64,000 nt of DNA from Anthoceros angustus. Lineage: Eukaryota; Plantae; Anthocerotophyta. The stretch covers positions 2,480,001 through 2,544,000 of the forward strand of contig MU008159.1 of assembly GCA_010909165.1 (NCBI GenBank), in the 5' to 3' direction. This document shows, one piece after another, positions 3,515-62,440 of the stretch. Within the stretch, counting starts at the first letter, position 1; every line of letters starts with the position of its first letter. Made by a program: the position numbers and the translations under genes. The notes beneath the pieces were generated by a model, which saw only the letters and a program-made list of their open reading frames with translations, searched no databases and had not been told where the DNA came from.

Positions 3515-6040
3515 ATGGAGCGCAAAATGGAACGGTTGTTCTCGGCTAGTAGGTTCAATCTTGGACGACAGTCCTCTCTGAAGCCAGAAGATCCGTCTCA
3601 AGATGAGGACAACAAGTTCCCCACGGCTGAGGACATGGAGGACACAATCCAATTGCTCTTCTACGCTCACGAGGGGAATAAGGACGGAATAGAGTCGCTT
3701 CTTGCGAGAGGACTGGACGTGAACTCCCCGGATATTGACGACCGCACCGCATTGCACGTGGCTTCCTGCGAAGGCCATTTGGAGGTGGTCAAGTTTCTCA
3801 TTGAGAAAGGTGCCAATGTGAACGCGGAAGACCGATGGGGAAGCACGGTGATGCTCGGCTTTGTGGTGGTGTTTGTGCTGTGCTTCAATGGCTTCTTCAA
3901 TTTTGCGCTTTTGCACTCATTCATGCGTATAGCGGTAGCGTGTCCCAGGTTGGTGCATTTGCACACGTTGACTCTCTTGGTAATTGGTGGTTTCCAGCCG
4001 TTGCGAGATGCAAACCACTACGAGATGAAGGAGGTGTCGGAGTTGCTAGAGAAACACGGTGGAAGAATACCTGTGAAGTCCTTTCACCGGACCTGTGTGT
4101 GAACAGTTTGCTTGAAATGGCAGCTCATTCCTTGGGCTACGTTTGCTTTAGGATATCGTGGTAGGTTGTTTGCTTGAAACTTTCCGAACCTGCTTTGTGA
4201 TATGTTGTGGCTCATCTTTTTTGTTTGCAGAAAACCTTTTCATCCATGCGCACTGAGACTCCGCCCGAATATGAAATCAACCCTGACCTGCTGCTTTTCG
4301 TCAAAGACATTGTAAGTGCAATTTGTTCAGCCCAGTCGTGTTCTCACGTCCTTAGTCCCGTTGGAAGTTTCTTTTGGCCTCGCTGTCTTTTGTTGGAGTA
4401 CGTTTTTCAGCATCAAACATTTTTGCTATCTCAGGCCGGCAAAGGCAACTATAGGGAGTACAACATGACAGGTACCAAAGTTGTTGTGAAAACTCTATCC
4501 AGCCGAGCAGTGACAAGCGAGAATCTGTAAGTGTTGCGGGTTGTGTAGATGCAGGCATTGACTCTGCGAGAACGGGTGTTAGGAGACTGACGTTCTTCGG
4601 ATGTTTGCAGAACATCGTTCAGAGATGAGCTGACAGTATTGCAAAAGCTGAGGCACCCAAACGTTGTCCAGTTTCTTGGTGCCGTTACTCAGACAACGCC
4701 TATGATGATTGTGACCGAGTATCTTCCCACTGTACGTGCATGCTTATGATAAGTGGCTCTGAATCTGAATTAAGCGAGGTCTTGTGGGGATATTATTGCA
4801 GATGAACAAGCCTTGATGACATGTGGGATTATGTTATTACCCTAATGGCAGGTTCTGCGCAATTATCTGGACAAGCATAAAAAGCTGGAGCCCGTAAAAG
4901 CAGTGAAATTTGCTCTTGATGTGGCAAGGTAAAGGTTGTTCAAACATGTGAAAAACGAGACGAGCTCAAGCCTCTGGAGCTCGTCAATTCTGAGATTTTC
5001 TGCCTGTCCTGTATGCGTGACCAGAGGAATGAATTATCTACATGAACGCAAGCCAGAAGCAATTATCCTTCATGATCTGAGTCCAAGGTAATGTTAACAT
5101 CCGTGCTCGGTGTCCTGTTTTCAATGCGTTCTGTCCACTACCACAAGGAGCCAGTGAGTCCTAATGTTGGTCTGTCTGAAGAAGTTTCTGGGACAAACCA
5201 CTCATCAATCTACCTTCCAGCAAGCTATCAGAAGCCTCATGCGGGACAAAGGAGGTCATGTGAAGGTGGCAGGCTTCGGTGCAAGTCTACTGAGGCGTGA
5301 GCGTAATGGAGGCCGCGTTTCCTATTCTGAGTTCAGCGCAAAGGTCGGGCCAGAATACGACCACGCAGACGAAAGCTGTAAGTCCTACTTGCGCAATGGT
5401 TATCTGGCTCACTGCTGAAGTGGACCTCATCTGCTAGTCTATCCAGAAAGGACTCCGTTAGAGTGTAGTCTAACCCCCGGTTCGGCTGCCAGGTCGTTAT
5501 ATGGCTCCCGAGTTGATCAGAAAAGAAGATTATGACTGCCGTGTGGATGTCTTCTCCTTCGCGTTAATTGTTCAGGAGGTAATTGGTTCTAGTGGGAAAT
5601 GATGTCATCTTGCCTCTTCTGTTTCTCAGGAACTTTCTGCGGCTGTAAGATTCTAAGACGCCCATCTTTCCGTTGCAGATGATTGAGGGTTCCATTCCCT
5701 TTGCAGAGAAGTCGGCCAAGGAGGCTGCCAAGTGTTATGCCCAAGGTGACAGGCCTCCATTCAAGGCCAGCATGCGGCATTATCCTGGCAACTTGAAGGG
5801 GTGAGAACTTGGGCAGCCACCCAAATGATCCTAGCTTTGCGGCTTGTCTGCCTGACTAATAGTAAGATGTGATTTGGCAGGCTCATAGAAGAATGTTGGC
5901 ACGGTGATCCAAACAAGAGACCAATGTTTAAGCACATTATCAGGGAGCTTGAAGAGATCCACCGGCATTTCAAAGAGAGAAAGTGGCTCGCAAAGGTGAA
6001 GAAGTTCATCAAGGACAGGGGCTCATCCCGAGGTGTCTGA
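3515..6040 (+). CDS. Ankyrin-repeat Raf-like protein kinase, plant integrin-linked kinase (ILK/BHP) family; probable pseudokinase
   Basis: Manual splicing with GT-AG introns gives exons 3515-3847, 3998-4072, 4231-4311, 4435-4526, 4611-4731, 4852-4928, 5025-5087, 5232-5377, 5493-5578, 5679-5800, 5881-6040 = 1356 nt, 451 aa, no frameshift. Family motifs: RFNLGRQSS; ankyrin DIDDRTALHVASCEGH / DRWGSTPLRDA; PEYEINP; LRHPNVVQFLGAVTQTTPMMIVTEYLP; ALDVARGMNYLHE; RYMAPE; DVFSFALIVQEMIEG; LIEECWHGDPNKRP. Confidence 0.95.
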
Positions 6041-6713: not shown

Positions 6714-6966
6714 CGTGCGAACGCGCAACTCGATGTACCCTGGCTTCATATCGACATATACGACATAGCAACATCAGTTTGTGGTTCTCCTTGCATACCC
6801 GGGTTTTTGCACCCGTTCTCTGTACTAGCATTTCCATACCCGACTTTCCATACCAGGGATGAAAGGTTTCTAAACCCGTCGGTTTCAAGTCGAGGTTTCA
6901 AATCAGGTTTTCAAAGCTATGCACTTCTTATCGCGGGTGAAGCGATCTAGAAAGAAAGCGGTGCGT

Positions 6967-7605
6967 ATGCGAGACAGACGCTAATCACGCCTGCGATGCG
7001 AGACAGACGCTAATCTGCCCGTGCGAATGCGGAGATAGGACACCTAATTTGCTGCCCGGTGCACGTGCGGAGACAGGACGCCTAATCTGCTGCCCGGTGC
7101 AGATGCGGAGACAGACGCCTAATCTGCCCGGTGCGGTCACGGAGCAGGGCGCTAATCTGCTGCCCGGTGCAATTGCGGAGACATGACGTTTGTCTGCTGC
7201 CCGGTGCGAGATGCGAGACAGACGCCTAATCTGCCCGTGCGGTCACGGAGCAGGGCGCCTAATCTGCCCGGTCGGTCACGGAGCAGGGCGCCTGTCTGCT
7301 GCCCGTGCGAATGCGGAGATAGGACACCTAATTTCTTTGCCCGGTGCGGTGCGAGACAGGGCGCCTAATCTGCCCGGTGCGAGATGCGAGACAGGGCGCC
7401 TAATCTGCCCGGTGCGGTCACGGAGCAGGGCGCTAATCTGCTGCCCGTGCAATTGCGGAGACATGACGTTTGTCTGCTGCCCGGTGCGAGACAGACGCCT
7501 AATCTGCCCGTGCGGTCACGGAGCAGGGCGCCTAATCGCCCGGTGCGGTCACGGAGCAGGGCGCCTGTCTGCTGCCCGGTGCGGTGCGAGCAGGCGCCTA
7601 ATGTG
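6967..7605 (+). repeat. GC-rich tandem array of roughly 30-40 bp units with alternating variants
   Basis: Recurrent GCGCCTAATCTG(CTG)CCCGGTGC joined by either GGTCACGGAGCAGG or (A)GATGCG(G)AGACAG; more than 15 units. Confidence 0.9.
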
Positions 7606-7909
7606 CAGAACTCAAGCGAACTTCGTACCTTCAAACATTCCCGAGAATTCAACTCGCTTTTTGCATGTGTTCAACTTGTGAAGTGGCGTGTTGTGATAGT
7701 TTCTTTGTGCGCAGACCCCATTTGGCTGATGCCCTGCAGGTGACTCCTTGATTCCTGCACGAATACAGCAGGTCATTTGGCCTCTCATACGAAGGAGGAG
7801 TTAGGGAATTTATGGATGAAACTCTTTGCTCTCCTGTTGATTAGTGTGATGAGAACTTCATACCAGATCCTTGCCGCTTGAAATTGGGTCCACACTCCTA
7901 CCATCAAGT

Positions 7910-8013
7910 GCAGCAGATTAGGAGTCTTGTCTCCGCATCTGCACCGGGCAGCAGATTAGGCGTCATGTCTCCGCATCTGCACCGGGCAGCACATTAGGCG
8001 TCCTGTCTCCGCA
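7910..8013 (-). repeat. Inverted copies (about 3) of the 6967-7605 repeat unit
   Basis: GCAGCAGATTAGGCGTC.TGTCTCCGCATCTGCACCGG is the reverse complement of CCGGTGCAGATGCGGAGACA.GACGCCTAATCTGCTGC. Confidence 0.9.
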
Positions 8014-8112
8014 TTTGGGCTTAACCAAAATTGTCTCACTGGTTAGCAGGATGCGTGCGTTGGATGCTGCTTTCGCTGTGTGCATGCAGGAGTCAAGTAC
8101 GTAGGGAGCTGC

Positions 8113-10846: not shown

Positions 10847-12343
10847 ATCCCTTCCATTGCCGTGATTGAAGGATCTGCTCTTGGTGAGGGCTTGGAGTTG
10901 GCTCTATCATGTGACTTGCGAATCTGTGGTGATTATCTGCACAAAGCTTGCATTTGGACATGGCCAAAGTTTCATACACCCATGACGACAGGGTGCATAG
11001 TCACTCACTTTGCTAGCCTCATCTTTGCTACAGGGCTGGATGCTATCCTTGGGTTGCCTGAGACAAGCCTAGCTATTATTCCTGGGTACGACAGAGCTTC
11101 CTTTTCAAGCGATGCGCTCGCATCCTATAATCTCATGCAAGATGTTGTTCATTACAGCAGGCGCAACTCGAGGCTCCCAAGACTTGATTTTTGGAAGAGC
11201 ACGTGCCAAGAGCTTATCTTCACCGCAGTAATCGATGCACTATATGCTTCAGATAGATGAGTGATCCTTCTAGTACAATCGCGTTTTGACGTGAGGCGTT
11301 ACCTGTCACTAAGTCTTTTATATCGGTGACAAGACTCGTAAACCATGCCGTGGAGTCGGGAGGTGCTTACGAGAAGGCCCTTGAAATTGCTCGAGAGATC
11401 ATGCAGTAGGTATTACCAGGTTTCTCAGTTTCTTTGATCAACCACTACTTGGAACCTACAACTGAATCGAAACCGTCGCTTGTTGCAGGGCCCATTGCCG
11501 TTAAAATGGCAAAGGTTGCCATAGACCGTGGAATAGAGGTAGAAAAATCTTCCGGTCTGGTCATGGAGGAGGCATGTTATGCTCGACGCACAGCTCAAGG
11601 ACTGGAGGGAAAAGACATTGCCGAGAAGAGGAAGCCTTTCTACAAAGGGAATAGGTAAGATTAGATGCAGCTATTGAATACCTAGCCGTTAGTACCCCTT
11701 TAGTCTTATAAAGGTGCACCTCGCCTCGTAGTCAACTATCTACTCCGGATGTTCCATCAACTTAAAGCTTCAAATTGTAATGGAAATTCAGCGATGCGCT
11801 CGCATCCTATAATCTCATGCAAGATGTTGTTCATTACAGGTCAGGCGCCTCGAGGCTCCCAAGACCGATTGGAAGAGCACGTGCCGAAGAGCTTATCTTC
11901 ACTGCCCGCAGAATCGATGCACTATATGCTTCACAGATAGATGAGCTGATCCTTCTAGTACAACTGTGCTCTTGACGTGAGACGTTACCCTGTCACTAAG
12001 TCTTTTATACTGGTGACAAGACTCGTAAACCATGCCGTGGAGTCGGGAGGTGCTTACGAGAAGGCCCTTGAAATTGCTCGAGAGATCATGCAGTAGGTAT
12101 TACCAGGTTTCTCAGTTTCTTTGATCAACCACTACTTGGAACCTACAACTGAATCGAAACCGTGCTTGAGGGCCCATTGTTAAAATGGCAAAGGTTGCCA
12201 TAGACCGTGGAATAGAGGTAGAAAAATCTTCCGGTCGGTCATGGAGGAGGCATGTTATGCTCGACGCTACACACCAAGGGCCGGTGGAGGGCTAGCAGAC
12301 ATTGCCGAGAAGAGGAAGCCTTTCTACAAAGGGGAATAGGTAA
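10847..12343 (+). pseudogene. 3' half of an enoyl-CoA hydratase / methylglutaconyl-CoA hydratase-like (crotonase) gene, last exons present twice
   Basis: IPSIAVIEGSALGEGLELALSCDLRIC, LGLPETSLAIIPG, RLPRxIGRARAEELIFTARRIDA, LVNHAVESGGAYEKALEIAREI, GPIAVKMAKVAIDRGIEVE..GLVMEEACY, AEKRKPFYKG, separated by introns. No 5' exons. In-frame TAG (11406-11408) and damaged splice sites occur in both copies. Confidence 0.85.
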
Positions 12344-12984
12344 GATTAGATGCAGCTATTGAATACCTAGCCGTTAGTACCCCTTTAGTCTTATAAAGGT
12401 GCACCTCTGCCTCGTAGTCAACTATCTACTCCGGATGTTCCATCAACTTAAAGCTTCAAATTGTAATGGAAATTCTGTAGCGATGCACTAAAGACCTGGA
12501 ATGCCTTGTGCACCTTCTGATATCCAGGAGAGGCGGAAGAAGACCCCATCCGAGGTTCAGCAGGACGTGACCACTTTACGGTCTATTTATTCAGCTATTG
12601 AGGTGAGAATGCCACTGGTATGTTCGTCCTGGTTGTTAGACCCTACAGAGGGCGGGTTTCCTTTTCTGTTTTTTGTGGGTGCAACTGCAGTCTATCCAAG
12701 CCCTTAACATGCTGAAGGGTCCGAGTAGGCATTACCGTATGTGGGCATCATGCCGGTTCATTCCTCCCACACGAGGAGGGAGCACGGTCCATCGCAGATG
12801 TGGATGCGGCAAAGAACTGGCATGTATAGGGTGCACGAAACAACTTTCTTTGTTGTTTTTGTGGACTGTAAGGGTTTCCAATACAAGAACGTTATATAGG
12901 TCACTACAAGGAGGGGCTACCTTTTACAAATGGGTCTAAGTTTAGTTAGAGGAAACTACAACACTCTTACTACAGCTCAAAGCC

Positions 12985-14105
12985 CTGTTGTAAGTTTTTG
13001 AACATTTACAACAAGGGTTCCTAACTAATATGATGTGGCATGGATTTTACAATGTGGTTTGTTGACATGGCATGTTGACAATTTTACAACGGGATTTGTT
13101 GACATGGCATGTTGACACAAATTTTACAAGCGGATTTGTTGACATGGCATGTTGACCATTTACAGGGGTTTGTTGACATGGCTTGCTCGTTGTACATGAC
13201 GTTGTTAATTGTGCATAAACTCTTTTGATTTAGAAAACTATGGGGGTTATTTGTTAATAAAACTACATTTTGTTGAATTTATAATGACGTCGTAAAGGAT
13301 GTTGTAAACGTACTTGTAAAAGACGTTGTAAACCATGTTTGTTGTAGATGTGGTTGTAAATTGTGCAAGACTTGATTTTTGGAATAATACCATTTATTGG
13401 AATATCTATGAATAGATTTATTATTTGGTGATGTGGCAAGTTCGTTGCAAATGATGTTGTAAATATGTTTCTCTGGATTTATGTTAGTTATGGGATTATC
13501 TTTTTTTTTGTATTACCGACGTGTCACATGCATTGTAGCTATGGTTGTAAAATGCATGAAAACCATTTTATATAAATATCTATAAATAAATTTATTATTT
13601 GCTGACATGGCAAGCTCATTGCAAATATCATTGTAAAATGGTTTCTCCAATTTATGTTATATTATTGGATTATTCATTTTATTGTATATTTCTGGCACAT
13701 GCGTAACTATGGTTGTAAAATGCACAAGCCAGCCAATATCCATGAATAAATATATTATTTGCTGATGTGGCATGTTTGTCGCAAATGCCGTTGTAAAATT
13801 TTGGAAGAGACCTTTTCCTTATTTATGTAATTTATGAGGTTATATATTAGTAAGATTGTTGATGTGGCATGCCTTTTCCTTATTTATGTAATTTATGAGG
13901 TTATATATTAGTAAGATTGTTGATGTGGCATGCTTGCATAAATGCCGTTGTAAATATGTGGAAGAGACCTTTTCCGATTTATGTCATTTTATGAGGCTAT
14001 ATATTAGTGAAATTGCTGATGGCATGTTCATTGCAAATATCATTGTAAAATGTTACAAATTTATCGATTTATAAATAGTGCCAAGCATTGTAAAATGTCG
14101 TGTAA
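12985..14105. repeat. AT-rich array of short motifs resembling CACTA subterminal repeats
   Basis: Dozens of (G/A)TTGTAAA / TTTACAA and GA(C/T)(A/G)TGGCATG motifs in both orientations, plus a 63-bp tandem duplication near 13810-13935. Confidence 0.7.
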
Positions 14106-14109
14106 GTCA

Positions 14110-14760
14110 CCACATCCTTTTGGGCTCAAGCATTCAAAACTTGAGGCATGCATCTTGGCATCTGGTCCACCGAGCGCCCACAAGTGCAAGCATCCAATGT
14201 CCTCTCCACAACTGGAGTGCACCGCCTCAGGGCACCACAATGCTTGCACAGCCTTCAAAAGGTGCTGTAACTCTTGCCCACAATCGTGCCCTCCATGTCC
14301 ATTTGTCCATACAAAATAGTGCCCATCCCATGTCACGACATCCTTTCTCGCTAACCTATCGAAAACCGTGTGTGCCTCTTCCAGCCACCACGCTATGACA
14401 TGTCCACCGATACTTGGCAATAAACAAGTTCGGTGGAATGTCAGCATGCAACATATCATGCGCACTTTTCGCTAGATTCCACAAAGAAATGCACAAGCTT
14501 GAAGGGCTGCTACAAAGATGTGGGCATCCGCCACACCGTGAGCGACACATCGCATAGTAAAGTTGTATCGCCTCATTAGGCTCCCCATGTGTAGCATGCG
14601 GAGATTATTGAAAACCACATGAAGGGATTTGGTTTGCCCACCCTCCTGTAGCCTACCTCCGGATACATACATCCGCAAGATATGGTTCCCCAAGTATGTG
14701 ATTGACTGCACCCAAGTTTGAGTGAGATCATGAACGCGTCATCCCACAACCATGTCCTTC
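14110..14760 (-). pseudogene. PLS-class pentatricopeptide repeat (PPR) gene fragment
   Basis: Frameshifted PPR motifs: TYLGNHILRMYVSGGRLQE, KPNPFMWFSIISAC, DAHIFVAALQACA, PNLFIA, LEEAHTVFDRLARKDVVTW. Ends at the AT-rich array. Confidence 0.8.
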
Positions 14761-15488: not shown

Positions 15489-18352
15489 GGGCCGAGGAAG
15501 GCAACTTCCTTGAACCATGGGAATTCCGTTTTCTAGATATTGCATGTAGGGCTATATATGCATGTTAGGTAGCTCAGGGGTAAAATTGGCCGACTCATCA
15601 AGGGCCGGTCGGGACATGTATACAATCTCGCTACTCCATGGTGGAGTAGTGAGTTCAACCTAGGCCGTGGAGTATACGGTTGAAAATTTTATAGCAACTG
15701 CGAATCTAGGTAGGAATCCTAGTGTACTTCCTTTTGGATTGCGATACGCAATTCAATGGAGATACACTAGGACAAGCTACTGATTAGCGAGCTACATATA
15801 AAGATTTGTAATACAATGATATGCGAGTTCTTGCATATTAGCGGCACAAAGTCGGGCCTAATGAAATGGCCAATCCGGGCGCCGATGGCCTCGCCTGAGC
15901 TAATTTCTAATAGGCAATAGGTATAGAGTTTCGATAGGCCTTCACTTGCGATAATCTACATAGTATGCGAGTGCTGAAAAACCAATCTGAGAGGGATTTC
16001 ACGAAGCATGGTTAGTCGTAACATCCGAAATGTAGAGGCATGTTGAAATGTTGAAATGTCACCGCAGATCTGGAAGAGGTTGAAGGACCTGTATGCATGA
16101 CGAAATGTCATTAGTGTAATGGCAGCATTGAGGTGATTCCACTGAAAAACACATAGGAGTATTTAGATCCTTAGCTGCTAAGGTTGAAGGATCCTCTGGT
16201 GACCTTCTGAGTGAAGAGGAGCTCACACTTTGACTCCTCATCTCACTTCCAGAATCTTGATCTCACTTCCTGAGCTCAAACACAGCATCCACTACTACAA
16301 AATGGGTTTGAATATGACAAGCCATATAAGACAGTCCATATGACGGGTGTTTTTCATCATTTAAATATGACAATACTGGGCGGTTAAGACAATTACCTTG
16401 GGTCGTCATTCATCCAATATGATGTGGTGTGCTTTCGTCTTAAAATCGTCCTTCCCAACTACGCTTATCGGAGGGTTACCCAACCTGCCTGCCAACCAAA
16501 GTCTAGTTACCGTGCACCCGTTGGAGATTGCACTACCCCGCCTAACGCTTGTTCCGACGTATGGAACTGCAACATCGACTCCGCTGCATGTGCAGCAACG
16601 GCTCGGCTTGCACATGTACCGTCATCTAGCAAACCCCTCTCGCCTCACCGCCGGGTGCATGACTCCAGGATATCCGTTGGGGTTTGCCAGCGGACCGTCG
16701 AAAATCAACGGCTTTCTCGATAGCTCCAATTACTTCGCTGGTTCATACCCTCAGACCAAACGCGTTGCGGAACCCTCGTCGGCAGTCCATGGATCTCCCC
16801 CGCTCAAATCGGCAGATCCCTCGAGTGCTATGCCAATGCCCTCGATGCACGGAAAACACTCGCCCAATTCGTGCGGACATTGCAGCGCGACATGAGAGAT
16901 CTTGGGTGCGGCTCCTCGCAGAGGTTAGGCACCATCACTGTTTTTTGGGAATTGTATGTGTGGGGCTTGTTTGGTTGGATGGATGAGCTCCTCACCACGC
17001 ATCTTCTGCCGCAGTGCGGCCAGCCGACGGTGACCTCCACTCTACGCATGCGTACATCTACCCCGATGCCCGGCGTCGACCCGCCTTCCCGCAGTTGCAC
17101 TGCAGCCCTTGGCGCCGCCTCCGCCCAATTCACCTCAACATGTTCCCACAAACCCGGGTATGCAAATGATAGAAGACGAGGCCATTCCGATACTTGCGTC
17201 GCCAGGGGTGTGAGCATGGTTCCGAACATTGGGGATGCTGACCGCTTGGCAGAGGCCATGCGGCAGTTCATGGCCGATACCCCGCCTTGGAAAGCCCTTG
17301 TGGATCAAGCTTGACGGATGTGTCTCATCACACACGGTTATCTGGGGCACTGGCCTTCCTAACTCTGCAGGAGCGCTTCAAGATTTCCGACTCAGCGATG
17401 ACGGCAATCTTCCAACTCCTCTCCACTTCTATTCTGCCGAAGATAAATTCGATGCCCACATCGAAGGGGGATGCTCGGAAAATGCTCCTTCACGTCGGAC
17501 AGACAACACAGCGAATTGACGCCTGTGTGGGCGACTGTTGCCTATTTTGGGGCCCCAGCGTAACACACAATTTGGCATCGTGGTCACCGAGGTTTCGGAT
17601 TGGGCAAACAGGGAAACCTGTGCCCGCAAGACCATGTTCTTCTTTCCGCTTATTGAGCGACTCGTTTGCTTGTCCTACCATTGCGCGCTTGCTCCGTGGA
17701 AGGCGACGGAGTTCGACGGACAACCGCATCATGGCCGATACCCCGCCTTGGAAAGCCCTTGATGCTGTGGGCGGCTTTGGTGGGGAGGATCGAATATTCG
17801 GCTAGGAATATCGACGGATGGCTTTAACCCAAGTGGGCACCGGTCTGCTTCTTACTCTATTTGGCCCGTGTTCCTTTTCATTCATAACCTGCCTCCTTGG
17901 CTTACCACCAAGAGGCATCGCATACTCATGCCCATTATCATACCGGGCCCGAAACAAGTGAAGAATCTTGATGTGTACTTACAGCTCTTGATGGAGGAGT
18001 TGGCCTCCCTATGGACTGGTGTGGCCGCAGTGGATCATTCCAAGGACGTGTCCGACCCTGCCCATTACTTTCTCCTCCGTGCTGCGGTCCTCCACGCTAC
18101 ATGTGATTACCCCGGGCTGGGGGCCCTTTTCGGGCTTCAGGTTCGTGGGTACCAATGTTGTTTTGAATGTGGACCCCTACTTCAGCCACGGTGGTCGCGC
18201 GCTTTGGATAAGGTGGTATGTGATGGGCACCGCAGATGGGCACCTGCAGGTGACCAACTGAGGCTTGAGCATCGTGAGTTTTTCAACAACGAGATAGAGC
18301 GCCGCCCCCCGCCCCCGCCAAGGGCCGTCCAGGACATTATTGATGAGATGGA

Positions 18353-18598
18353 TGACAATTTATATGGATTATGTAGATTAATTACAACATTAAGTAATTA
18401 CAGATTAATTGAGAATCAAGAAAAGAGTCTAAAGTGCTTATGCGAAAAGGCAACTTAAACTTAATCTAAACGATGTGACTATTCACGAAAAGTCGTAACC
18501 CTAACGAAAAGATATTTACCTAACTCAACATCATACTAAGGATTATTTATCGTAACTATCCTTAGACCTATAGTCATGACATCAACATAATACCAATA
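18353..18598 (-). repeat. Copia-1 3' LTR (element-strand termini TA...CA)
   Basis: Direct repeat of 26969-27214, bounded by TSD and PPT. Confidence 0.97.
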
Positions 18599-18878
18599 CT
18601 CCCACTTGTTGAGTGGATCATGACCTAGACATTATCTGAATCACGGTCTTCACTCTCGTGTGCTACCCGTGAGACTGTTGCTGAGCTGCGGTATCACCCA
18701 AACGCGGTTGCGATCTTTCGCGTACACTTTTACGCTCAATCTTCCTGCCAATTCTGAACTCCACATGCAGTACCAGTGTGAAGCCACTGAGATGAGGTAC
18801 ATCTCGCTCATAACCCTGATGTATTTTCTCAGCCTTTTGTTCGTTGAGCATCTGGAGCGTAAGATTGCTGTGCTCGCC

Positions 18879-19692
18879 ATGTCTTCCCCTTCGCCCGAGA
18901 TCGCCTCTGCCGCTGCCAGCCCGCACGCCTAGGCGTGTTCGCACCTAGAACAGCTGCCAAAGTTCAAAGTCCGGCTGTGGCAAACGCCGCAACGGAGCCA
19001 TCACGCAGGAAAGGACGCCCCCGTGGTACTACCAAAGAATTCCTGGCAAACAGGAGGGCTACAACGACTGCTGAAGCTGCTACCGCCGCATCTGTGCCAT
19101 CTCGCGACATGGGTGGCACCTCAGCGCATCGAAGGACTGTGACGAACACTCCAAGTGCTACGAAGACTGTGAGAAAGTATCCTGTGCAGGCTGAGTATGC
19201 TTACTCTGATGACGAGTCGCAGCCATCATTACCCTTGTGTTTCCCTCGGCCTCATGACATTGACAGTGAAACCAAGATTGTCAGTATTGGCTGCATCGAG
19301 CATCCTCGTACCCCTGTGTGGTACAAGATATATGTCAACGGCGTCAAGGTGATCATGAAGAGGGTTTCGGTGCGCCTGTGTTCTCACTATCCAGGGCATG
19401 TTGTAAGCATATATAGTATGTCTCTGAAACTGGCTACCTGTTGCTTACTCTGTTCAGAAATTGCTTGCTGTCTATTCATCTCCTTGACACTATCTCCCAC
19501 TGGATGTGAACAGGGTCAAACCAGGTAATCGAGAGAGGCGACTTAGAGATCAAGAGAGAATCTCCTACGAGGAACGCAAAAGACGCAATTCTCCTCGATC
19601 CGATGAAAGCTTCTTCGCCTGTGAGCCTCGACTGCACTCAAGCTAATGAGGATGCTTCTACATCCTTTTCCATGAAGTCGGGAAAGAAATAA
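18879..19692 (+). CDS. Antisense extra ORF of Copia-1 (AT-hook-like motif plus unknown conserved domain), frameshifted in this sequence
   Basis: GCCATG at 18879 (MSSPSPEIASAA), frameshift into track ORF 18935-19528 containing RRKGRPRG and AYSDDESQPSLPLCFPRPHDIDSETKIVSIG...IMKRVSVRLCSHYPGHVVS. Homologous ORF at 61500-62205. Confidence 0.65.
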
Positions 19693-20932
19693 GCTTTGAT
19701 GAACCTTCGATGATGACTCGTGCTACTAGCCCGAGAAAGTTAGGCGATTGAAGTAGTGGCTAGAGATTCCGTGAATCTCCTAGCCCAAGACTTTTCATGT
19801 GTTTGAAGTGCAGCTCTCGGCTTCGTGCCTTGGTAAGTATATCTCAAGGATTGTCCTGTGTTGGCACATACGCAACTCTATCTTACCACCGCCACTAACC
19901 TCGGATGTAGTGATATTCCACTTCCACGTGCTTGGTGCGTGAGTGGAAAATCGGATTCTTAGCCATGGAGCCTTGATTGTCCGTATGGATTGTCGGGCAT
20001 GTTGTAAGCATATACTGATCGTCAAACGGCAACTGTTGCTTAATATGTTCGAAATTGCTCATTGCCTTGTTCATCTCCTCGACACTGCCTCCCACCGGAT
20101 GTGACAGGTCAAACCATGTAATCGAGAGAGGCGGACTTAGAGATCAAGAGAGAATCTCTTACGAGGAACGCAAGAGACGCAACTCTGCTCGATCGATGAA
20201 AGCTTCTCTTCGCCTGTGAGCTCGAGCTAATGAGGATGCTTCTACATCCTTTTCCATGAAGTCTGGGAAAGAAATAAGCTTTGATGAACCTTCTGACAGC
20301 TATGACTCAGGCTACTAGCCTGAGAAAGTTAGGCAGTTGAAGTAGTGGCTAGAGATTCCTGTGAATCTCCTAGCCCAAGACTTTTCATGTGTTTGAAGTG
20401 CAGCTCTCGGCTTCGTGCCTTGGTAAGTATATCTGAAGGATTGTCCTGTGTTGGCACATACTGCAACTCTATCTTACCAGCTGCCACTAACCCTCGGATG
20501 TAGTGATATTCCACTTCCACGTGCTTGGTACGTGAGTGGAAAATCGGATTCTTAGCCATGGAGCCTTGATTGTCCGTATGGATTGTCGGGCATGTTGTAA
20601 GCATACTGATCGTCAAACGGCAACTGTTGCTTAATATGTTCGAAATTGCTCATTGCCTTGTTCATCTCCTCGACACTGCCTCCCACGGATGTGACAGGTC
20701 AAACCAAAATCGAGAGAGGCGGACTTAGAGATCAAGAGAGAATCTCCTACGAGGAACGCAAAAGACGCAATTCTCCTCGATCTGATGAAAGCTTCTCTTC
20801 GCCTGTGAGCTCGAGCTAATGAGGATGCTTCTACATCCTTTTCCATGAAGTCTGGAAAGAAATAAGCTTTGATGAACCTTCGACTATGACTCGTGCTACT
20901 AGCCCGAGAAAGTTAGGCGATTGAAGTAGTGG

Positions 20933-23900
20933 CTAGAGATTCCGTGAATCTCCTAGCCCAAGACTTTTCATGTGTTTGAAGTGCAGCTCTCGGCTTAGTG
21001 CCTTGGTAAGTATATCTGAAGGATTGTCCTGTGTTGGCACATACTGCAACTCTATCTTACCAGCTGCCACTAACCCTCGGATATAGTGATATTCCACTTC
21101 CACGTGCTTGGTGCGTGAGTGGAAAACTGGATTCTTAGCCAGCGCCATGGAGCCTTGATTGTCTGTATGAATTGTCGTGCATGTAGGAATAGGAATCCCG
21201 AGATCCTCAAACAACAAATTACACCACACAATCTCTTTTGCAGCTGCTGTTAAAACCCTGTATTCTGCCTCTGTGGATGATAGGGCAACTGTGGGCTGCT
21301 TTTTACTGGACCAACAAACTGGTCCACCTGCGATGGAGATGACATAGCCAGAAACGCACTTCCTGCTATCAACATCCCCTGCATAATCTGAATCAGTGAA
21401 GACTTCAAGGTCTAATGGCTTTCCTTTCAGGTGCTGGTATCGAATGCCCAAGTTAGGTGTGCCCTTGAGATATCTAAAGGCCCGCTTAAGGCTTGTCCAA
21501 AGGTTTTGACCTGGATTTTCCAGAACCGCGATAATGCACTAGTTGTGAAGGCAATGTCCAACCTCGTTGTGTTGGACGCATAGATAAGCTTGCCTACCCC
21601 TTGCCGGTAAGGAATACCAACCATCCGATTCTTTTCTTCTTGTGTAGACGGTGACATACTCATCGAGTCGCCGCAAGGGTGTAGCGAAGGCTTGGCGTCC
21701 TTGAGACCGAGTTGTTCGCACTATCAAGGATTGTCCTGTGTTGGCACATACTGCAACTCTATCTTACCAGCTGCCACTAACCCTTGGATATAGTGATATT
21801 CCACTTCCACGTGCTTGGTGCGTGAGTGGAAAACTGGATTCTTAGCCAGTGCCATGGAGCCTTGATTGTCTGTATGGATTGTCGTGCATGTAGGAATAGG
21901 AATCCCGAGATCCTCAAACAGCAAATTACACCACACAATCTCTTTTGCAGCTGCTGTTAAGACCCTATATTCTACCTCCGTGGATGATAGGGCAGCTGTG
22001 GGCTGCTTTTTACTGGACCAACATACTGGTCCTCCTGCGATGGAGATGACATAGCCAGAAACGGACTTCCTGCTATCAACATCTCCTGCATAATCTGAAT
22101 CTGTGAAGACTTCAAGGTCTAATGGCTTTCCTTTCAGGTGCTGGTATCGAATGCCCAAGTTAGGCGTGCCCTTGAGATATCTAAAGGCCCGCTTAAGGCT
22201 TGTCCAATGCTCTTGACCTGGATTTTCCAGGAACTGCGATAATGCACTAGTTGTGAAGGCAATGTCCAACCTCGTTGTGTTGGACGCATAGATAAGCTTG
22301 CCTACCCCTTGCCGGTAAGGAATACCAACCATCTGATTCTTTTCTTCTTGTGTAGACGGTGACATACTCTTACTGAGTTTCTGTCCTGCAGCAAGGGTGT
22401 AGCAGAAGGCTTCGCGTCCTTGAGACCGAGTTGTTCTGCACTATCAAGCAGATACCTTGGTTGAGTTAATGTCATAACTCTGGCTTGCCTGTCCCTCTGT
22501 ATGAGGATGCCGAGACAGCTTTGTAAAGGTCCGAGACTTGACATTTTAAATCTCCTTGCAAGCCTATCTGTGATCATTGTAATAAATGCCTGGCTGTTGC
22601 TTGACAGATCAAGTCATCAACGTACACGGCCAGGTAACAAACTACATCGCCTTTCTTGTAGATATAAAGGCTGCCGTCTGCCAGGCTTTTAATGAAACCT
22701 AAAGCTAGAAGTTCGTAATCCATCTGCTCCATTTCATTGTCGATTGCTTGAGACCATATGTGCACTTAATTAGCCTCGCACATGGTCCTCTTTGCCCTTA
22801 ACCTCATACCGGAGGTTGTTGCATGTATATTTACGTATCAAGCTTTCCGTAAGAAAGTCGTCTTTACATCATACATCTGTAATTCATAATTGTGATGTGT
22901 TGATATTGCGAGGATGATGCGAAGTGTGGCTAGCTTCACTACTGGAGCGAAGGTCTCAAGATAATCAAGTCCAGGGACTTGTGAGAAACCTCTTGCTACT
23001 AGCCTTGCTTTATACCTATCAAAGGTACCATCGACTTTAATTTTTAGTTTGAATACCCACTTACAGGACACCATTTTTCCGCCAGAGGTAACTTTGCTAT
23101 CTCCCATGTGCCATTTTCTATCAGTGAATCATACTCTGACTGTATAGCCTTCTCCCACTCCTTGTGGTCAGGTCTACTCAAAGCTTCCACATAGGACTAT
23201 GGTTCTATCGGGTCGAGAGAGGTGGGCGCATGAGTCACATGAGCGGAGGAAGCTCGAAAATCGAGGCCGTGTCGGAGGTCTCCTTTCACGAGTGGGATAT
23301 CGCGAAAGGGTTCGCGGCAGTCTTGGTGGGGGTTCAGTTCTTCGTGTTCTTGAGTATCAACTTCTTCGCCAAAGATCAATCGGGCTGATTATGATCAGCC
23401 TCAGATGGGTAATATCGGGATCCTGCATTTGTGGCTCGGCATAGCGGAGGTTCATTGTCTAACTCGCCTCTACATGTTCCCCACCGCAGGGATGTCCGCG
23501 CGGGAGCTCGAGTGCCATGATCGAAAGATCAAAATGAGACATATGTTGTCCTCGGTGTCATCAAAATGTAGGATGTGTTTGTGCTCCCACCAAGCCCAAG
23601 TGCGGCCCTCATCAAAGGTAACACTTGAGCATAAACCATCGTGTTTGTGGGGACATCATACAATTTGTATGCTTTGATGCCCTCCGTATAACCAAGCATA
23701 AGAAGTTTCCTTGCCTTATCTCGCAAGTTTCTTCCGCTTGTCTCTAGGTATGAAAGCATAAGGTGGCAACCAAAATCCTCAAATGTCAAGAGATGGTTTC
23801 CTACCGTGAATGCCTCATAGGGTGTCTGTCCAAGAATGTTAGTAGGTAACTGCTACGGAGGTAAGTGGAAGTCATAAGTGCTTCCGCCCAATATGGCAAA

Positions 23901-25932
23901 TCGAGCATCATGAAGCAAGGAGGAAATCATTTCGCAAGGTAAGGTTAAGACGCCCGCCACTCCATTCTGTTGGGGAGTGTAGACAACCGTAAGTTGTCGA
24001 CCAATTCCCTCGTCTTCTGATGGGACTGGAATTCGTTAGAGGTATATTCACCACCATTGTCGGACCTAAGAGTTTTAAGCTTTCCACCCAAATTGCTCAA
24101 AGAATTTGATGTACTCCTTGAAATAGGAGAAACATTCACTCTTGTTCTTCAGCATGTATGAAGTGACAAATCTGCTTTTGTCATCTGTAAATGTTAGGAA
24201 GTACTTGCCACCACCGATGGAATCCTGTGACAAGGGTCCACAAATATCAGTGTGCACAAGTTCTAGGAGATCATTGGCTCGGTGAGGGGCCTTATTCTTA
24301 AAGGCTGCTTGGTGCCTTTTCGAAAGCACACAAGCTTCACAAAGTGGGATAGCGGTCAAAGGGCCTATTTGTCCATCCTGGTAAAGGTCACTCACAGCCA
24401 ACTTCTGAAGTTTTGCCATGTGAGGATGACCAAGGCGGGCATGCCACAACTTAGATTTTGCTATCTCACAGTGATGCTGTGACACGCCCCTGTAAGGTGA
24501 GACTCGACTACTCCACTATGCAAATGGAGACGAAACAGATCATGGTCAGAAGACCCATAGGCAAGTACCTTCTGTGGTCAAATGCATCTATGACTTGACA
24601 ACTGCTCTAGTAAATAGGATATGGCAATTATTTTCTGCATTCAGTTTTCTAACCGAAATGAGATTTCTGGTCATGTCAGGCACGTAATAAACACCTTGCA
24701 GTGTCAGGGTGACTCCAGAAGAAACTGGCAAGTCTACTGTACCACGACCAGGAGATACCAAAGACCTATCATCTCCAAGGTAAACATACTGATCATTCAC
24801 TGACCTGAATGTTGTAAATGAGTTTCTATCAAAGCAGATATGAGCTGTTGCTCCTGTATCTAAGTACCACTCAGATGTGGGTTTTAAATGTGCTTTGGCA
24901 GACAAACATATAGGGAGCAAGAGTGGACTAGCAAACTCCCTGGTCCCAACAGTCAGGGCAGATGGAGTGTTTTGCTTTTTGACCACAACGTGTGTCTCAG
25001 CACTCGATGATCCCTCCTTGCGAGGTACTCCAGCCTGTTTCTTTCGACAATCACGTTCCCAATGTCCAGGTATTTTGCACCAATTGCAAGTACCTGATTT
25101 TTTATTTTTCTTGCTGGAAGGATTAGCTCATGAGCTACCTCCCTAGAGGAGCTACCACCACCACGAGAGGAGAATCTTCCACCTCCTCGTCCCGGTTTGA
25201 TGTGTACAAGGCCCTGTTGCTTGCTCAGAGCGCTCTTGCTAGCCTCCTCTTGAAGCATAGTACTAACAAGCTCGAGAATGACATCTCCGGCATCTCAATG
25301 CCTTGTTTCCTTGCTATGATGTAGCCTGGCTTGTGCAGCGTGTGATGTCACGAAATGTGACCAGGACTCGAAGCGAGAGGAGAAGTCTCATGACCAGTTC
25401 TTCTTGTCATGATTATTTTAGAGGCACCTTCTAGTTTTGAAGCGAGGGTCCTGAAGGTACTGATATGTCTCTCCACGGAATCTCCATCCTTCATTCTGTA
25501 GTTCTGAAAGTTGCGCATTGCTGCCATTGTACTAACCTTATTGGATCCTGCATAGAGATCAGAGAGACGGGTCCAAATCTCGGCCGAAGTTTTTGCCCCA
25601 CCAGTCTGCCTCAACATGTCAGATGTTAGGCCACTGCGTATAAGGTATTTGGCTGCGCTATCTTTAGCTAACCATTCTTTGCCAGACTTACCCTCTCCGG
25701 GATACTCTATCTTTCCGGTTGCATGTTTCAGCAAGTTCCTAACTTCAAGGATACCCTCCATCCGGATTACCCAAATATCATAGTCAGTACCATTAAACCT
25801 ATCCTTCTCCTTGAAGGAATCATTAGCAATGCCAGAGGATGATGAAGTGTCACCCATCCTAGGTTTGTGTGTTGACTCAAACTCGTCTTCCAAAGTTTCT
25901 GTTGTCTCCTGATCACTATCTGCTGCGTCCAT
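20933..25932 (-). pseudogene. Copia-1 gag-pol (frameshifted; RT/RNase H end repeated down to about 19780)
   Basis: gag DRFNGTDYDIWVIRMEGIL; zinc knuckle CNWCKIPGHWERDC; protease WYLDTGATAHIC; LWHARLGHP..CEAC; integrase [49 protein letters not shown], YVDDL; RNase H TDSDYAGDVDSRKS, HSRTKHVEVEYHYIR, SDILTKAL. Confidence 0.95.
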
Positions 25933-25941
25933 AGGACTAAC

Positions 25942-26503
25942 TTATAGTGGGTGTTGGTTGTGGTGCTGCAGGGTTTGATCCCAAGCAGCCCTACATGCAG
26001 CAATTCTAGAGCTCCTCATCTCAAACTTATTGTATGCGTAAGTTGAGCATGAAGGACAAGAATTAGGTGAGTCAAACTTCCTCTCGTGATTAGTTTTGCT
26101 CACGTGCTTACTATGCTTGAATCTTTGGATTACTAAGCAATTCAGTTTCAATAGCATCACTAGCTTGTAATCTATATGAACAAGTCGCTCCTTCAAGTCC
26201 CGGAGATCAATCGTGGAAATATGGCCAGCAATTTGATTGCATCTCGCTTCAACATTCTGTTATTAGCCTCAAGACGAACAAGTGTGTTTACACGATTTGT
26301 GATGCGGCCGATTGTGAGGAAGCCGTCGGTGGTCATTTCCATCAAGTGGTTGTACCAGAGCGCTTGAGTTGTTCTTGTCTTGGAGGAAGTGTGAATGTAA
26401 GATCAAGCTCCTGTGGGAATAGCAATTCAACAATTGTGTTGAATGCTTCCTTTAGCTCTTCACTGGTTGAGTCCGTGCTCGTGGCTCCATTCTCGACGCA
26501 CAT
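25942..26503 (-). CDS. Putative extra ORF upstream of Copia-1 gag (two apparent frameshifts)
   Basis: ATG at 26503: MCVENGATSTDSTSEELKEAFNTIVELLFPQEL.. / ALWYNHLMEMTTDGFLTIGRITNRVNTLVRLEANN.. / DLRDLKERLVHIDYKLVMLLKLNCLV...QHPL*, ending just before the gag frame. Confidence 0.4.
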
Positions 26504-26968
26504 GTAATTGATTGGCTAGTGTTAGCCTATCTAGGACTCTATATCTATTACGCCTAGGAATCGATTGTAGGCGATCCCAGCCTCTGGGCTCGGGATATTT
26601 GCCATGGCTTCAAGCCGGTTGATGTTTTCTAGGATGCAGAACTTCTGCATTTTAGAAATTCTTTATAAAACTATATGCAAATCTGCCTATTAGGCAGTTG
26701 TTCTAGTGCATTTTCATGGAATTGTCTAAATTGGCAATTTCAATGAAGATGCATTAGAAAACCTGTCTGATACTGCAGAAATTTGCATATGTTTTTCCTA
26801 AAAGAAAACATCATAAACTATTTTCTTGAAAATCTTCTTGTTTCTTTATTTGACTTCATTTTCAAAACAAGAAAACAACAGAAGACAAATTCATGCACAT
26901 CTTCTAGTGCAGAATTTTTATGTGCATCTATTTAGATGCTTTCTACATAGTATCTTGCTCTGATACCA

Positions 26969-27214
26969 TGACAATTTATATGGATTATGTAGATTAATTA
27001 CAACATTAAGTAATTACAGATTAATTGAGAATCAAGAAAAGAGTCTAAAGTGCTTATGCGAAAAGGCAACTTAAACTTAATCTAAACGATGTGACTATTC
27101 ACGAAAAGTCGTAACCCTAACGAAAAGACATCTACCTAACTCAACATCATACTAAGGATTATTTATCGTAATTATCCTTAGACCTATAGTCATGATATCA
27201 ACATAATACCAATA
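26969..27214 (-). repeat. Copia-1 5' LTR
   Basis: Directly abuts the PBS (no spacer); flanked by TSD ATGGA. Confidence 0.97.
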
Positions 27215-28761
27215 ATGGATGCATGGGAAAATGCAGGGCCAGGGGAGAGAGCGAATGGACGCGGTTGGAGTGTGAAGCGGAAATCAGCTTTTGCTCTCCA
27301 CTTGCCCTACTTACGATCTATTCCCAGGTTGTGGCTGAAGGACGTGATGCACACTGAGGTGAACAATGCCCAAGCGTTATGGAACATTTGGACTGGAGTT
27401 TGGGACACGCACAATGCCAAGGTTGACCTCGTTGACTTGGACTCCAAGCCTTGGTTGTGGCCTGTTGTTGACGACCATGATGAGACCCACCTGCCGGATG
27501 CATCGTACGCACTTTCGAAAACTGACATTCAAGCGGTGAAAGATGAGCTTTGTAGGATCAGACCACCAACTGCCTTCGGCGCAAACCTTTCCTCTTCTTT
27601 TGGTGGGTCTAAAATAACTGGTCTAAAGAGCCATGATTGGCACCTTCTGATGCATTTTTCCCTATTGCCTTGCGGGCGTTTGAAGGGGCCTGAGTATGCC
27701 TGTTTTGTTGAGCTTAGTGGCTTATACCGCTGGATATGTCGGAAGGTTATAAATCCAGCTGAGATTCCAGCAATGCAGGTTAAGATGGTGAACACTATAG
27801 TGGCATTGGAGCGGTGTTATCCGTCAGTCTTGTGGAACCCTATGCAACACCTGCTCATCCACCTCCTGGACGAGGTAGAAACGCATGGCCCAGTCCACGT
27901 CCGATGGATGTACCCTGTGGAGAGGCATCTCCATGTATTGAAGCAGTCGATCCGCCAGCGAGCAAAGCCGAAAGGGAGCATGGCCACAGGGCATCTTGCC
28001 ATGGAGAGCATGTTTTTCGCGAGTGATTTCCTGGCAGCAAGGACCCCTGGTGAAGCACATTTATTCCAGCAAACCACGCATTCCCGCACCGAGGAGCGGC
28101 CCGTGGGGAAAGGCAAGCGAAAACCACATGCGCTCAAGAGCGAAAGCGTCTGCATTGGCACTTCCTCCGCATTCGGGTCGTGCGAGTCGACTCGATGGCG
28201 CGACCGAGGCGCTTTTGACATGGTTGGGCGGGGGTTCTTTCGGGGAGGTGGGCAAGCATGGAAGACTACAATGACCTCCAGCGCTATGGTGTTTGGTCCC
28301 GAATCAAGGTAACTACTTACCGCGGTTTGGACACGATGGGGTACCACTATCGCACTAAGGAATCGATGCAAATCGGTCAACAGATAGTTGGGTTTTGGCA
28401 CATTCGACATGGAGGACCAGCCGGTTGATTTTACGGGCAAGTGGATGGGATATTCGATGTTGCTTTCGAGGCGGCGGACTTTACCGCCTTCGTCCTCGTG
28501 ATCCAGTGGTTTGGCGAATTCACACCAACCCTGCGTCTATGGGCCCGGATTGCGGTGGGTTTACCGCTGATCGATACAAGGCGCTTGTACCGTTATCGGC
28601 GAGACCATAAGACCGGCCTTCACATTCCCTCGTGCACAGCATTGGCACATCCGGATGTGGGAGGGGGGCGGTTGGTACATTTGCACCTGTTCCTTCCAAA
28701 TGGGATTTCTTACTAGAAAGGGATGAAGACACACCGTAGACAAGCGTGAGCAAATGCATCA

Positions 28762-37000: not shown

Positions 37001-37899
37001 TGCTTGTTTATCAAGGCTTTAACGGCATCGTTGTCCACCGCACTCACCGCGCCCGGATCGGACCCTGCACCTCATCATGGTTAGAACACCACCCCCTTGC
37101 AGAAATTGATTGCGCCATTCGAGATCAAGTGCCTGTGCGTCGGTCGGCGCTGTCCGCTGCCTCTGCCGGCTTGTCCGGCCCCTTCCACGATTCCCACTTT
37201 CCCTTCTTGCAATCGCTGCCACCGCCCGGCCCTCGAAAGGTTGCCTCCCCTTGTCCCCATGCTTAAACACCTGCCAGCATGCCAGGTGCTCCTGTGTTAC
37301 CCGTTTGTCCACCATGCCCACTCATCCGGCCTGCAAACTTCAGAACGTGTGCACACTTTGCCAGCGTCACTTGCCGGCAAAGTGTGCACTTGGTGTGCAC
37401 ACTTTGCCAGCATCACTTGCCGTTAAATCGACTCCGCGACAACCAACCTCATCCGACGTAAATAGCTCCTCCTCTATGTCGTTCAATTCTTGCACGCAAT
37501 GCTCCAACTCCGCATCCGTCGGGTGGGAGGTTCCAGATCTCGGCGTCGTCAAAATCAACTCCTGTTCAGACCATCTCGCCTCGCCTCTTACCGCGAGTCT
37601 TGATGAGGAGGCCGCTTCTTGGTCGCCGATGTCGAATGAAGACCGCGGTGGTGCGGGATGGCCCCGGCCGAGGCGGTTGCCCCCATCCTCCCCACCCGGA
37701 TCGGTCCATCGTCGTCGCCATCGGCCGCGCCCGGCTTGTCCGGCCTTCCGATTCCACTTTCCCTTCTTGCAATCGCCACCGCCGCCCTCCCTTCCAGAGA
37801 CTTGTCCACCGCCTTCGTTCCATGCTGAAGGCAATGGCTTCCCTCTCGGGTGAAAGGCGCCAGGCCATGAGTCCGGCGCATTCAAGACAGCCATTTTGA

Positions 37900-45740: not shown

Positions 45741-45943
45741 AGTTAGAATTGCATGCGGAAGCGTCTTAAGCAAAGATGCTATATTAACAATGAATCAAGT
45801 GTGTTCATAGGTGGGCTTTTATAGGTGGTCTCGTAAGGGGTGTGTCCTTTCGCTAGCCTAGCTAACTACCTATACTAACTGCCAGGTCTAGCTGACTAAC
45901 CATATTGGTACAGAACCAACGTGGTCTGCTATTATTTCTAACT
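45741..45943 (-). repeat. Copia-2 3' LTR (termini AGTTAGAA...TTCTAACT)
   Basis: Direct repeat of 54181-54382; 8-bp terminal inverted repeat. Confidence 0.96.
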
Positions 45944-61345: not shown

Positions 61346-62440
61346 GAGTATGTGCCTACACAAGAAAACCCTGGATATATTAACGAAAGCTCTTTCAAAA
61401 GAGGCCACGAGAAGCATGTTTGAGGTGGGGTTAGAGAGTCTGGAACTTTCCTATCTAACCCCAACTAGCCTACATGCCCGCTACCTAATCCCTCAGTTAA
61501 CATCGGTCTCGGAGGACTCTTCCTTTGGATTCTCGAGTCGGAGGGCTCTGGAGGCCTTAGCATCGGAGTCCTCACACATGTCATCTTGGGAGGAGCAGCA
61601 TCCTCCTCAATCCTCAAGGCAGATCCTGCGGTCAAGACACAAAGCAATTAGATAGCTTTAGGCGAGTGGGAGTAGGAGGCGAGATGAAGCAAAACCCAGT
61701 CACTTCGTGGCGGCTTACAACATGACCGAGGAGCAGTGTAACCACGCACTCGATCCGTTTCATGACCGGACCCGGTATGCTTGCATCGATGCAGATAGGA
61801 GAGCTGGGCATTGCCGGTGCCTAGGCTCACAATCTTCACATCCTTATCGGGGTTACCTCGAGGGAAATTCGAGGCCGTGAGGCCTCACCTCCCCTCCGTC
61901 AGACATAGCCTCGGGCCCACAGGCAGGCCACAGGCTCCCTCTTCTGAGTGGCGTGGGGGCAGCGTGGGAGAAATTGTGGAAGCTAAGCGCGCAATGGAGG
62001 ACCTCCCATGTCCTCCCGATTATGGCCTCGCGCCTAGTCCTCGGCCTGCCGCGTTGTGCGAGGCGCTCCCGTTTCTTGGTCGGCTCGAGCTTCCCCGGCG
62101 GTGTCGGGTCCCTTGCGAGCAGAGGAGGTTGTCCTAGCCGCCTTGCTTGCCGCGGCCTAGGGAGTCTCTTCTGGCGGGGTTCGCATCCTTAGAGGAGGGC
62201 GACATCTCGATCGATTCGCTCCACAACCCCTTCTCCAATTGCAGGCGTGAAGATGAAGAAGAGGAATATAACGCACTGGTGAGGAGGTTTCTCAGCACGC
62301 TCGAATATATACGGCGAGGGGCGTACGTGAGCAATGCATCTGCAGCTTTCACCCGACTCCATCCTACAAGGGTGGAGATGATCCGGTTGTTGGAGCATCA
62401 CTTTCCAAAATGATCAACAAGTGGGAGTGAAGAGTTATAC
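61346..62440 (+). mobile_element. 3' fragment of a third Copia element related to Copia-1
   Basis: RNase H C-terminus EYVPTQENP/DILTKALSKE at 61346-61440; PPT CAACAAGTGGGAG (62415-62427) identical to that of Copia-1, followed by TG; about 1 kb between pol and PPT. Confidence 0.8.
61500..62205 (-). pseudogene. Antisense extra ORF of Copia-3 (homologue of 18879-19692)
   Basis: MSPSSKDA.., EPTKKRER, EAMSDGGEVRPHGLE/NFPRGNPDKDVKIVSLG, VMKRIECVVTLLLGHVVS, FCFIS. Confidence 0.6.

Follow-up and report, generated by a model that had tools for sequence, protein, structure and literature searches.

Two diverged Ty1/copia retrotransposons within a 64,000-nucleotide stretch of the hornwort Anthoceros angustus genome (contig MU008159.1; hereafter the window) share, between pol and the 3′ LTR, a region on the strand opposite to pol that is probably a real coding gene. 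We give a probability of roughly 0.55 to the reading, predicted from sequence, that this is an element-encoded accessory gene whose product is an AT-hook-type nuclear protein acting in trans as a regulator of the AT-rich LTR. An earlier note on this DNA had proposed a selected antisense accessory protein, and this proposal was supported at moderate strength by frame-specific similarity, an excess of third-position changes and the retention of a GRPR motif through synonymous codons. What antisense accessory ORFs do in LTR retrotransposons has been investigated almost exclusively in the large Gypsy elements found in flowering plants. If the reading is correct, a compact and unrelated antisense ORF in a bryophyte Copia would represent a convergent gain of the same layout, would add a protein family without a detected homologue and would provide a small model in which a single clear motif can be mutated; annotation of transposable elements by gag and pol alone would then miss such conserved genes in Copia.

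Copia elements of the window

The first element, Copia-1, is a full insertion on the minus strand (18353-27214) flanked by the TSD ATGGA, found at 18348-18352 beside the 3′ LTR and at 27215-27219 next to the 5′ LTR. The 3′ LTR (18353..18598, minus) is 246 bp long with 29% GC and non-canonical TA...CA ends; the 5′ LTR (26969-27214, minus) is adjoined by the PBS TGGTATCAGAG (26958-26968, minus; together 26958..27214), which we take to be of the tRNA-Met type. A PPT-like motif, AACAAGTGGGAG, lies at 18599..18610 (minus) and is identical in Copia-3. The gag-pol region (21019..25932, minus) holds gag (25348-25932; PF14223, E 3.5e-21), a weak integrase match (rve, 24078-24419) that fails the cut-off at E 0.009, and RT/RNase H (21727-22365), whose relatives include Copia RT (PF07727); its RT/RNase H end is repeated in a 707 bp tandem duplication. 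Two LTRs, a TSD, a PBS, a PPT and the order gag-integrase-RT-RNase H, as expected of Ty1/copia, are all found in Copia-1. It is a young insertion, with 4 mismatches and 0 indels between LTRs of 246 bp. Like those of the tomato Copia element TARE1, its LTRs are short and begin with TA, and as in TARE1 they are nonetheless bordered by an exact 5-bp TSD (available text of PMC3701649). The insertion splits a CACTA tnp2 gene, with PF02992 to its left and PF13960 to its right. Among the matches listed, the closest to the Copia-1 RT/RNase H came from a contig (P0001) at 71% identity, with named plant matches at 46% or less; for RNase H, a single match among the 120 listed exceeded 52%. A palindrome, CCACT-TGTTG-AGTGG, overlaps the Copia-1 PPT (18595-18625), and in Copia-3 (62410-62430) the PPT half alone remains.

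Copia-3 is a fragment on the plus strand, truncated upstream and without a second LTR. It retains an RNase H tail broken by indels (61346..61430) and the PPT-like motif (62416..62427), after which a TG marks a possible LTR start. The RNase H tail has the same amino acid as Copia-1 in 19/25 aligned codons, and since 11 of these 19 identical residues use different codons, the two families are old. Among 121 candidates, the Copia-3 tail scored 71 against Copia-1 and 70 against the P0001 contig, the two nearest, with a median of 33. The distance from the RNase H end to the PPT-like motif is about 0.99 kb in Copia-3 and about 1.16 kb in Copia-1, close to the 1.1 kb given for the latter in the earlier note. 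Beyond the RNase H end, the Copia-3 sense frame stays open for ∼75 codons (61430-61655, plus); this frame overlaps the tail of the antisense ORF and has no significant match to the Copia-1 sense frames.

A third element, Copia-2 (45741-54382), is a young Copia of another lineage, with LTRs of about 203 bp that are 99% identical and a poorly defined TSD. Its RNase H scores only 17-21 against the Copia-3 tail, its 3′ region is ∼0.35 kb long, and the antisense stretch is missing from it. Both lineage members in the window, Copia-1 and Copia-3, bear the stretch (2/2). As Copia-2 belongs to another lineage and has no long 3′ region, the long 3′ region follows one lineage (two of two members in the window).

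Several other features of the window were recorded. The kinase exon at 3515-3847 is exon 1 of an integrin-linked-kinase-like ankyrin kinase gene; it has 67-69% identity to a protein of the hornwort Nothoceros aenigmaticus and at most 59% to the orthologues listed from a fern, a liverwort and seed plants. A GC-rich tandem array (6959-8015) with inverted copies at 7026-7113 and 7928-8015 (93%) possibly consists of transposon subterminal repeats. The segment 8113-8336 matches 59607-59718 and 60588-60804 in inverted orientation, and a minus-strand frame at 14061-14459 includes a stretch that looks PPR-like by eye and has no PPR match in Pfam.

Layout of the antisense region

The earlier note had described a single ORF in Copia-1 from 18879 to 19692. 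The peptides that it quoted were all found where it had placed them, but they are distributed over three pieces of frame (18624-18929, 18863-19525 and 19510-19689) that are interrupted near 18915-18935 and again near 19410-19510. The likely true N-terminus (18792..18929, plus) carries an RYI block and a heptad-like VEHLERKIAVL block, both present in Copia-3. In-frame ATGs occur at 18765, 18792, 18819 and 18879; because the two conserved blocks (18792 and 18843) lie upstream of ATG 18879 in its own frame, the gene is likely to start at or before 18792. ATG 18879, which had been taken as the start, is thus probably internal, with ATG 18792 the likely start unless an earlier one is used. The main stop-free frame (18926..19525, plus; stop to stop 18863-19525) encodes, in order, a S/T/A/P-rich linker, a basic patch with an AT-hook-like RKGRPR (19007-19024), DMGG (19106), an acidic SDDE patch, a conserved core with FPR, KIVS, MKR and GHVVS (19241-19408) and FIS (19475). 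A C-terminal piece (19510..19692, plus; TAA at 19690-19692) has a PTR..K...L.D block matched in Copia-3 and falls in the noisy first unit of a tandem array. The gene as pieced together is likely to be near 300 codons long.

The Copia-3 counterpart (61500..62276, minus) contains several indels and an in-frame stop. As the earlier note had claimed, the similarity is antisense and at the matching position; it is also collinear and above chance: between pol and the PPT the two elements have 12 collinear peptide blocks in common, which in Copia-3 lie at 62276, 62224, 62186, 62053, 62015, 61909, 61866, 61848, 61769, 61727, 61691 and 61544. The residue is the same at 54/95 codons of these blocks and the codon differs at 30 of the 54, counts that are descriptive as the blocks were chosen by similarity. 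The Copia-3 Met aligned to ATG 18879 is at 62186 rather than at 62205, the start given previously, and two correspondences had been overlooked: RGRPR (62053), which is how the AT-hook core reads in Copia-3, and the common DMGG.

The distance from GHVVS to FIS is 78 nt in Copia-1 versus 36 nt in Copia-3 and varies between tandem units. The last 12 bases of GHVVS are identical in the two elements, a possible sign of an overlapping cis element. An ACCAGTG just 5′ of the first conserved block is also common to both (18770-18835; 62276-62290), in differing frames, and might serve a putative antisense transcript as a splice acceptor or as an element of its 5′ UTR.

Assembly noise and frame breaks

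The 3′ end of the Copia-1 antisense ORF sits in the first of three tandem units of ∼595 bp (19394..21184), which comprise the ORF 3′ end and the RNase H end, differ largely by indels and are a probable artefact of long-read assembly. Across the window there are at least eight head-to-tail duplications with 87-95% identity, many of them indel-dominated (11108-12489, 19394-22448, 34598-35563, 37674-40782, 46510-47972, 50918-52716, 57934-58691 and 58728-60880). These are probable long-read gap-filling artefacts that would affect any ORF call in the assembly. The duplication at 37.7 kb has 60 indels versus 29 mismatches and the one at 58.7 kb has 27 versus 22, in contrast to the Copia-1 LTR pair. 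The RNase H tail of Copia-3 has 3 frame breaks in ∼40 codons. Given the indel-noisy duplications and the broken RNase H tail, breaks in the antisense frame are inseparable from sequencing error, and neither copy is intact in this assembly.

The breaks in both copies, together with the in-frame stop in Copia-3, would also be expected if the stretch were a once-functional gene or a captured piece of a host gene, passively carried and decaying in both families. This is an improbable explanation, since the breaks are equally dense in the Copia-3 RNase H tail and the duplications of the window are dominated by indels, while Copia-1, despite its young age (4/246 LTR mismatches), still has a frame of 221 codons. 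Moreover, no cellular homologue was found among 1.84 billion representative sequences, and transduced genes are usually in sense orientation, as far as the available part of PMC7264820 describes them.

Tests of coding potential

In a six-frame test against Copia-3, the stop-free antisense frame of Copia-1 scored 67 (z 6.7) and the other five frames scored 29-37 (z -0.4 to 1.7). The sense frames of the Copia-1 region contain 5 to 11 stops each and score at null level, and sense-strand coding was rejected on these grounds. A frameshift-aware score of 59 was obtained, with maxima of 51 in 60 protein shuffles and 49 in 57 other 1-kb tiles. In a neutral simulation at matched DNA similarity (444 runs kept of 972 tried; a first, too little diverged simulation yielded 5 comparable runs), a lead of that antisense frame by at least 30 over all others arose in 3/444 runs and a score of at least 67 in 11/444. 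When frameshifts were allowed in both copies, the antisense strand scored 59 and the sense strand 36, a difference of at least 23 being reached in 8/603 neutral runs. Frame-blind DNA alignments had an excess of third-position mismatches in the antisense frame under all four scoring schemes, reached by 130/2954, 46/3210, 157/2633 and 1/2045 neutral runs (0.044, 0.014, 0.060 and 0.0005), and position 2 of that frame was the least changed in all four. All coding tests reuse the same two noisy sequences, with p-values of about 0.01-0.05.

Individual motifs were also compared. GRPR occurs three times in the six frames of the window, two of these in the antisense ORFs at matching places, with 4/4 codons and 6/12 bases differing between them. 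Of the antisense tetrapeptides on the diagonal, six of six follow the proposed reading path, and the four sense ones are spread over three frames. In the RYI block, different codons are used at 5/5 identical residues. The upstream flanking block reached z 2.9, with the neighbouring antisense frame there at z 2.7, and the downstream block reached z 3.2 in tandem unit 1 and z 1.4 in unit 3 and was not recovered in unit 2. Plain tblastn of the Copia-1 ORF reached Copia-3 at E = 8.8 only, and a search of 184 window tiles for further copies of the core gave none, Copia-3 itself scoring 49 versus 48 for the best unrelated tile.

The region could in principle be a homologous non-coding 3′ sequence that prefers one frame by chance and owes its conservation to DNA or RNA elements acting in cis, for packaging, termination or antisense RNA. 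The two regions are significantly similar already as DNA (z about 5-6), with short exact blocks preserved, and tests of the core by itself are inseparable from neutral expectation: its score of 45 was reached by 422/6271 neutral runs and its protein-guided pS-pN of 0.20 was as high in 485/822. As this pS-pN is within the neutral range, the synonymous differences in the chosen blocks are no independent proof, and the measure was dropped as coding evidence, the neutral control having the same bias. We nevertheless consider non-coding conservation quite unlikely, given how rarely the whole-region frame contrast arose in neutral runs (3/444 and 8/603) and that GRPR is kept despite 6/12 differing bases. 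A stop-free frame of 221 codons arose in 5/2000 Markov-1 resamplings of the region; frames of that length also occur in 14/109 real window tiles, including those over pol, tnp2 and the kinase exon. The consensus RNA fold is weak (-11.45 kcal/mol over 241 columns, with helices of 2-4 pairs) and has no Rfam match. A sense-strand origin and RNA structure, which the earlier note had named among the explanations fatal to its proposal, were not upheld.

Protein features and homologue searches

The basic patch of the Copia-1 main frame has 8 K/R in 25 residues and contains GRPR; a GRPR core with basic flanks is present in both families. The AT-hook core of the HMGA type (Pfam AT_hook) is R-G-R-P-R. 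The Copia-3 hook is RGRPR and the Copia-1 hook departs from this canonical form as KGRPR. In contrast to known AT-hook proteins, the antisense protein has a single copy of the motif, with K before GRP in Copia-1, and no Pfam AT_hook match. It is likely to be nuclear and DNA-binding, a prediction drawn from this one motif.

No Pfam family matched the main frame (E 0.5), and none matched either the core or any of five antisense pieces of Copia-3 (E 10). Transposase_28 (PF04195), the plant mobile domain (PF10536), SMC-like families and DUF390/601 were absent from the Pfam results for the antisense frames, and no described Copia accessory domain, a match to which the earlier note had also held to be fatal, was found by Pfam. 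By eye, likeness to a chromodomain, an MBD and the hybrid-binding domain of RNase H1 had been considered, and none of these had Pfam support. A word-indexed homologue search gave 0/426 candidates at E ≤1 (candidate lengths 121-387 only), phmmer gave none at E 0.001 among 1,835,955,588 representatives, and matches to the ORF were found in 0/164 metagenome and 0/3 viral stretches. Among PDB sequences, the best match (E 0.47) was to Fab tags. RNase H searches recovered one viral and seven metagenome loci, the latter at 33-41% identity, and none of the seven had a similar 3′ ORF (scores 25-43). These blanks carry limited weight, as close relatives of the host are scarce in the collections, judging by the single RNase H match above 52% among those listed.

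AlphaFold and Foldseek, which the earlier note had suggested, gave no confident fold or structural match (mean pLDDT 42.5 and 46.4; Foldseek best E 0.93; VIA best Z 2.8). In both low-confidence models, a beta-hairpin falls at PVWYKIY/VKVIMKR within a hydrophobic core. Poor structure matches from such models are uninformative and are no argument for a new fold.

Proposed function

If the stretch is a coding gene, a nuclear DNA-binding role for its product appears reasonably probable, and, given such a role, we lean towards an LTR regulator over an integration-targeting factor. An antisense transcript would arise, as reported for Grande gene23, at a promoter located either within the 3′ LTR or within the 181-bp spacer. 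Together, the basic patch and GRPR would serve as a nuclear localization signal and minor-groove hook, the N-terminal heptad block would dimerise or recruit a partner, and the beta-rich core (19241-19408) would be the effector domain. Tethered to the AT-rich LTR (29% GC, versus 50% GC for the window), the protein would keep the element transcribed in trans.

The gene may be real and its product instead be cytoplasmic or anchored in a membrane, with a role in the particle, in transport or against defence and with GRPR as an RNA-binding or nucleolar signal. The likely Copia-1 N-terminus has a 19-residue stretch with a mean hydropathy of 1.68, a match to SRTM1 (transmembrane) lies below threshold (E 0.0094; 16.5 bits versus a cut-off of 27), and a second hydrophobic stretch (2.16) is found at the Copia-1 C-terminus. 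However, the Copia-3 frame with the aligned RYI block has a hydropathy of -0.06 (a different Copia-3 frame has 1.86), and the stretch at the C-terminus belongs to the noisiest tandem unit, with units 2 and 3 giving a different reading. We feel that a membrane or cytoplasmic role is unlikely compared with the nuclear one.

The nuclear regulator may be taken a step further. It would then be the retrotransposon equivalent of VANC-type or HBZ-type proteins, and to our knowledge the Copia superfamily in plants lacks counterparts of either type. We tentatively suggest, while regarding it as doubtful, that the hornwort Copia lineage independently gained an antisense gene for a new family, combining an AT-hook with a beta-rich domain not recognised so far, and that the protein transactivates the element's own AT-rich LTRs or counters their silencing.

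Comparison with known antisense and env-like ORFs

Antisense 3′ ORFs have been described in Grande, RIRE2, Retand, PvRetro13 and Boty, with a nuclear GENE23 and antisense promoters reported for Grande (PMC7264820). According to Gao 2014, 15 gypsy families have antisense 3′ ORFs, and 2 copia families have env-like ORFs in sense orientation (PMC4093653). In the REXdb table of Neumann 2019, antisense ORFs of at least 250 codons (eORF-3′R) occur among Copia only in SIRE (1%), compared with 86% of Retand and 60% of Ogre, if two values in the Bianca and Ikeros rows, whose column assignment is uncertain, are taken as 5′ (PMC6317226). The same table lists the env-like eORF-3′F in sense orientation in 74% of SIRE and in antisense in 1%, in agreement with the earlier note, which held that extra ORFs of plant Copia are mostly sense ORFs of SIRE. 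Vicient 2025 tied the Retand ORFs to Transposase_28 and placed Retand only in eudicots and monocots (PMC11963269). The available portions of PMC8220671, PMC11728184 and PMC5445492 show no antisense ORF in Copia, and the literature searched, with most subscription papers outside its scope, did not describe any gene of this kind from a bryophyte Copia.

Unlike the eORF-3′F of SIRE (Sirevirus, Ty1/copia), which is in sense orientation, the hornwort Copia ORF is antisense and so does not belong with the env-like class; its LTR is 246 bp. The aORF-3R class is defined by an antisense ORF that separates pol from the 3′ LTR, and such an ORF is present here, though broken in this assembly. The antisense ORFs of Retand/Ogre elements (Grande gene23, RIRE2, Retand ORF4 with Transposase_28, bean ORF2) share with it a place between pol and 3′ LTR, an antisense orientation, conservation between families and a proposed nuclear or DNA-binding role, as described in the available parts of PMC7264820, PMC11963269 and PMC4093653. 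Those elements are Ty3/gypsy with a 3′ region of 2.9-6.6 kb, whereas the host element here is Ty1/copia with one of ∼1 kb; in the hornwort ORF, unlike in theirs, Pfam detects neither Transposase_28 nor a plant mobile domain nor SMC; and its host is a hornwort, unlike the eudicots and monocots in which alone Retand was found (PMC11963269). On the best reading of the sequences, the hornwort ORF would be analogous, and not detectably homologous, to the Grande/Retand/Ogre antisense ORFs. It is probably the known layout of an antisense accessory ORF, here in a superfamily and host group for which the sources available to us give no prior listing.
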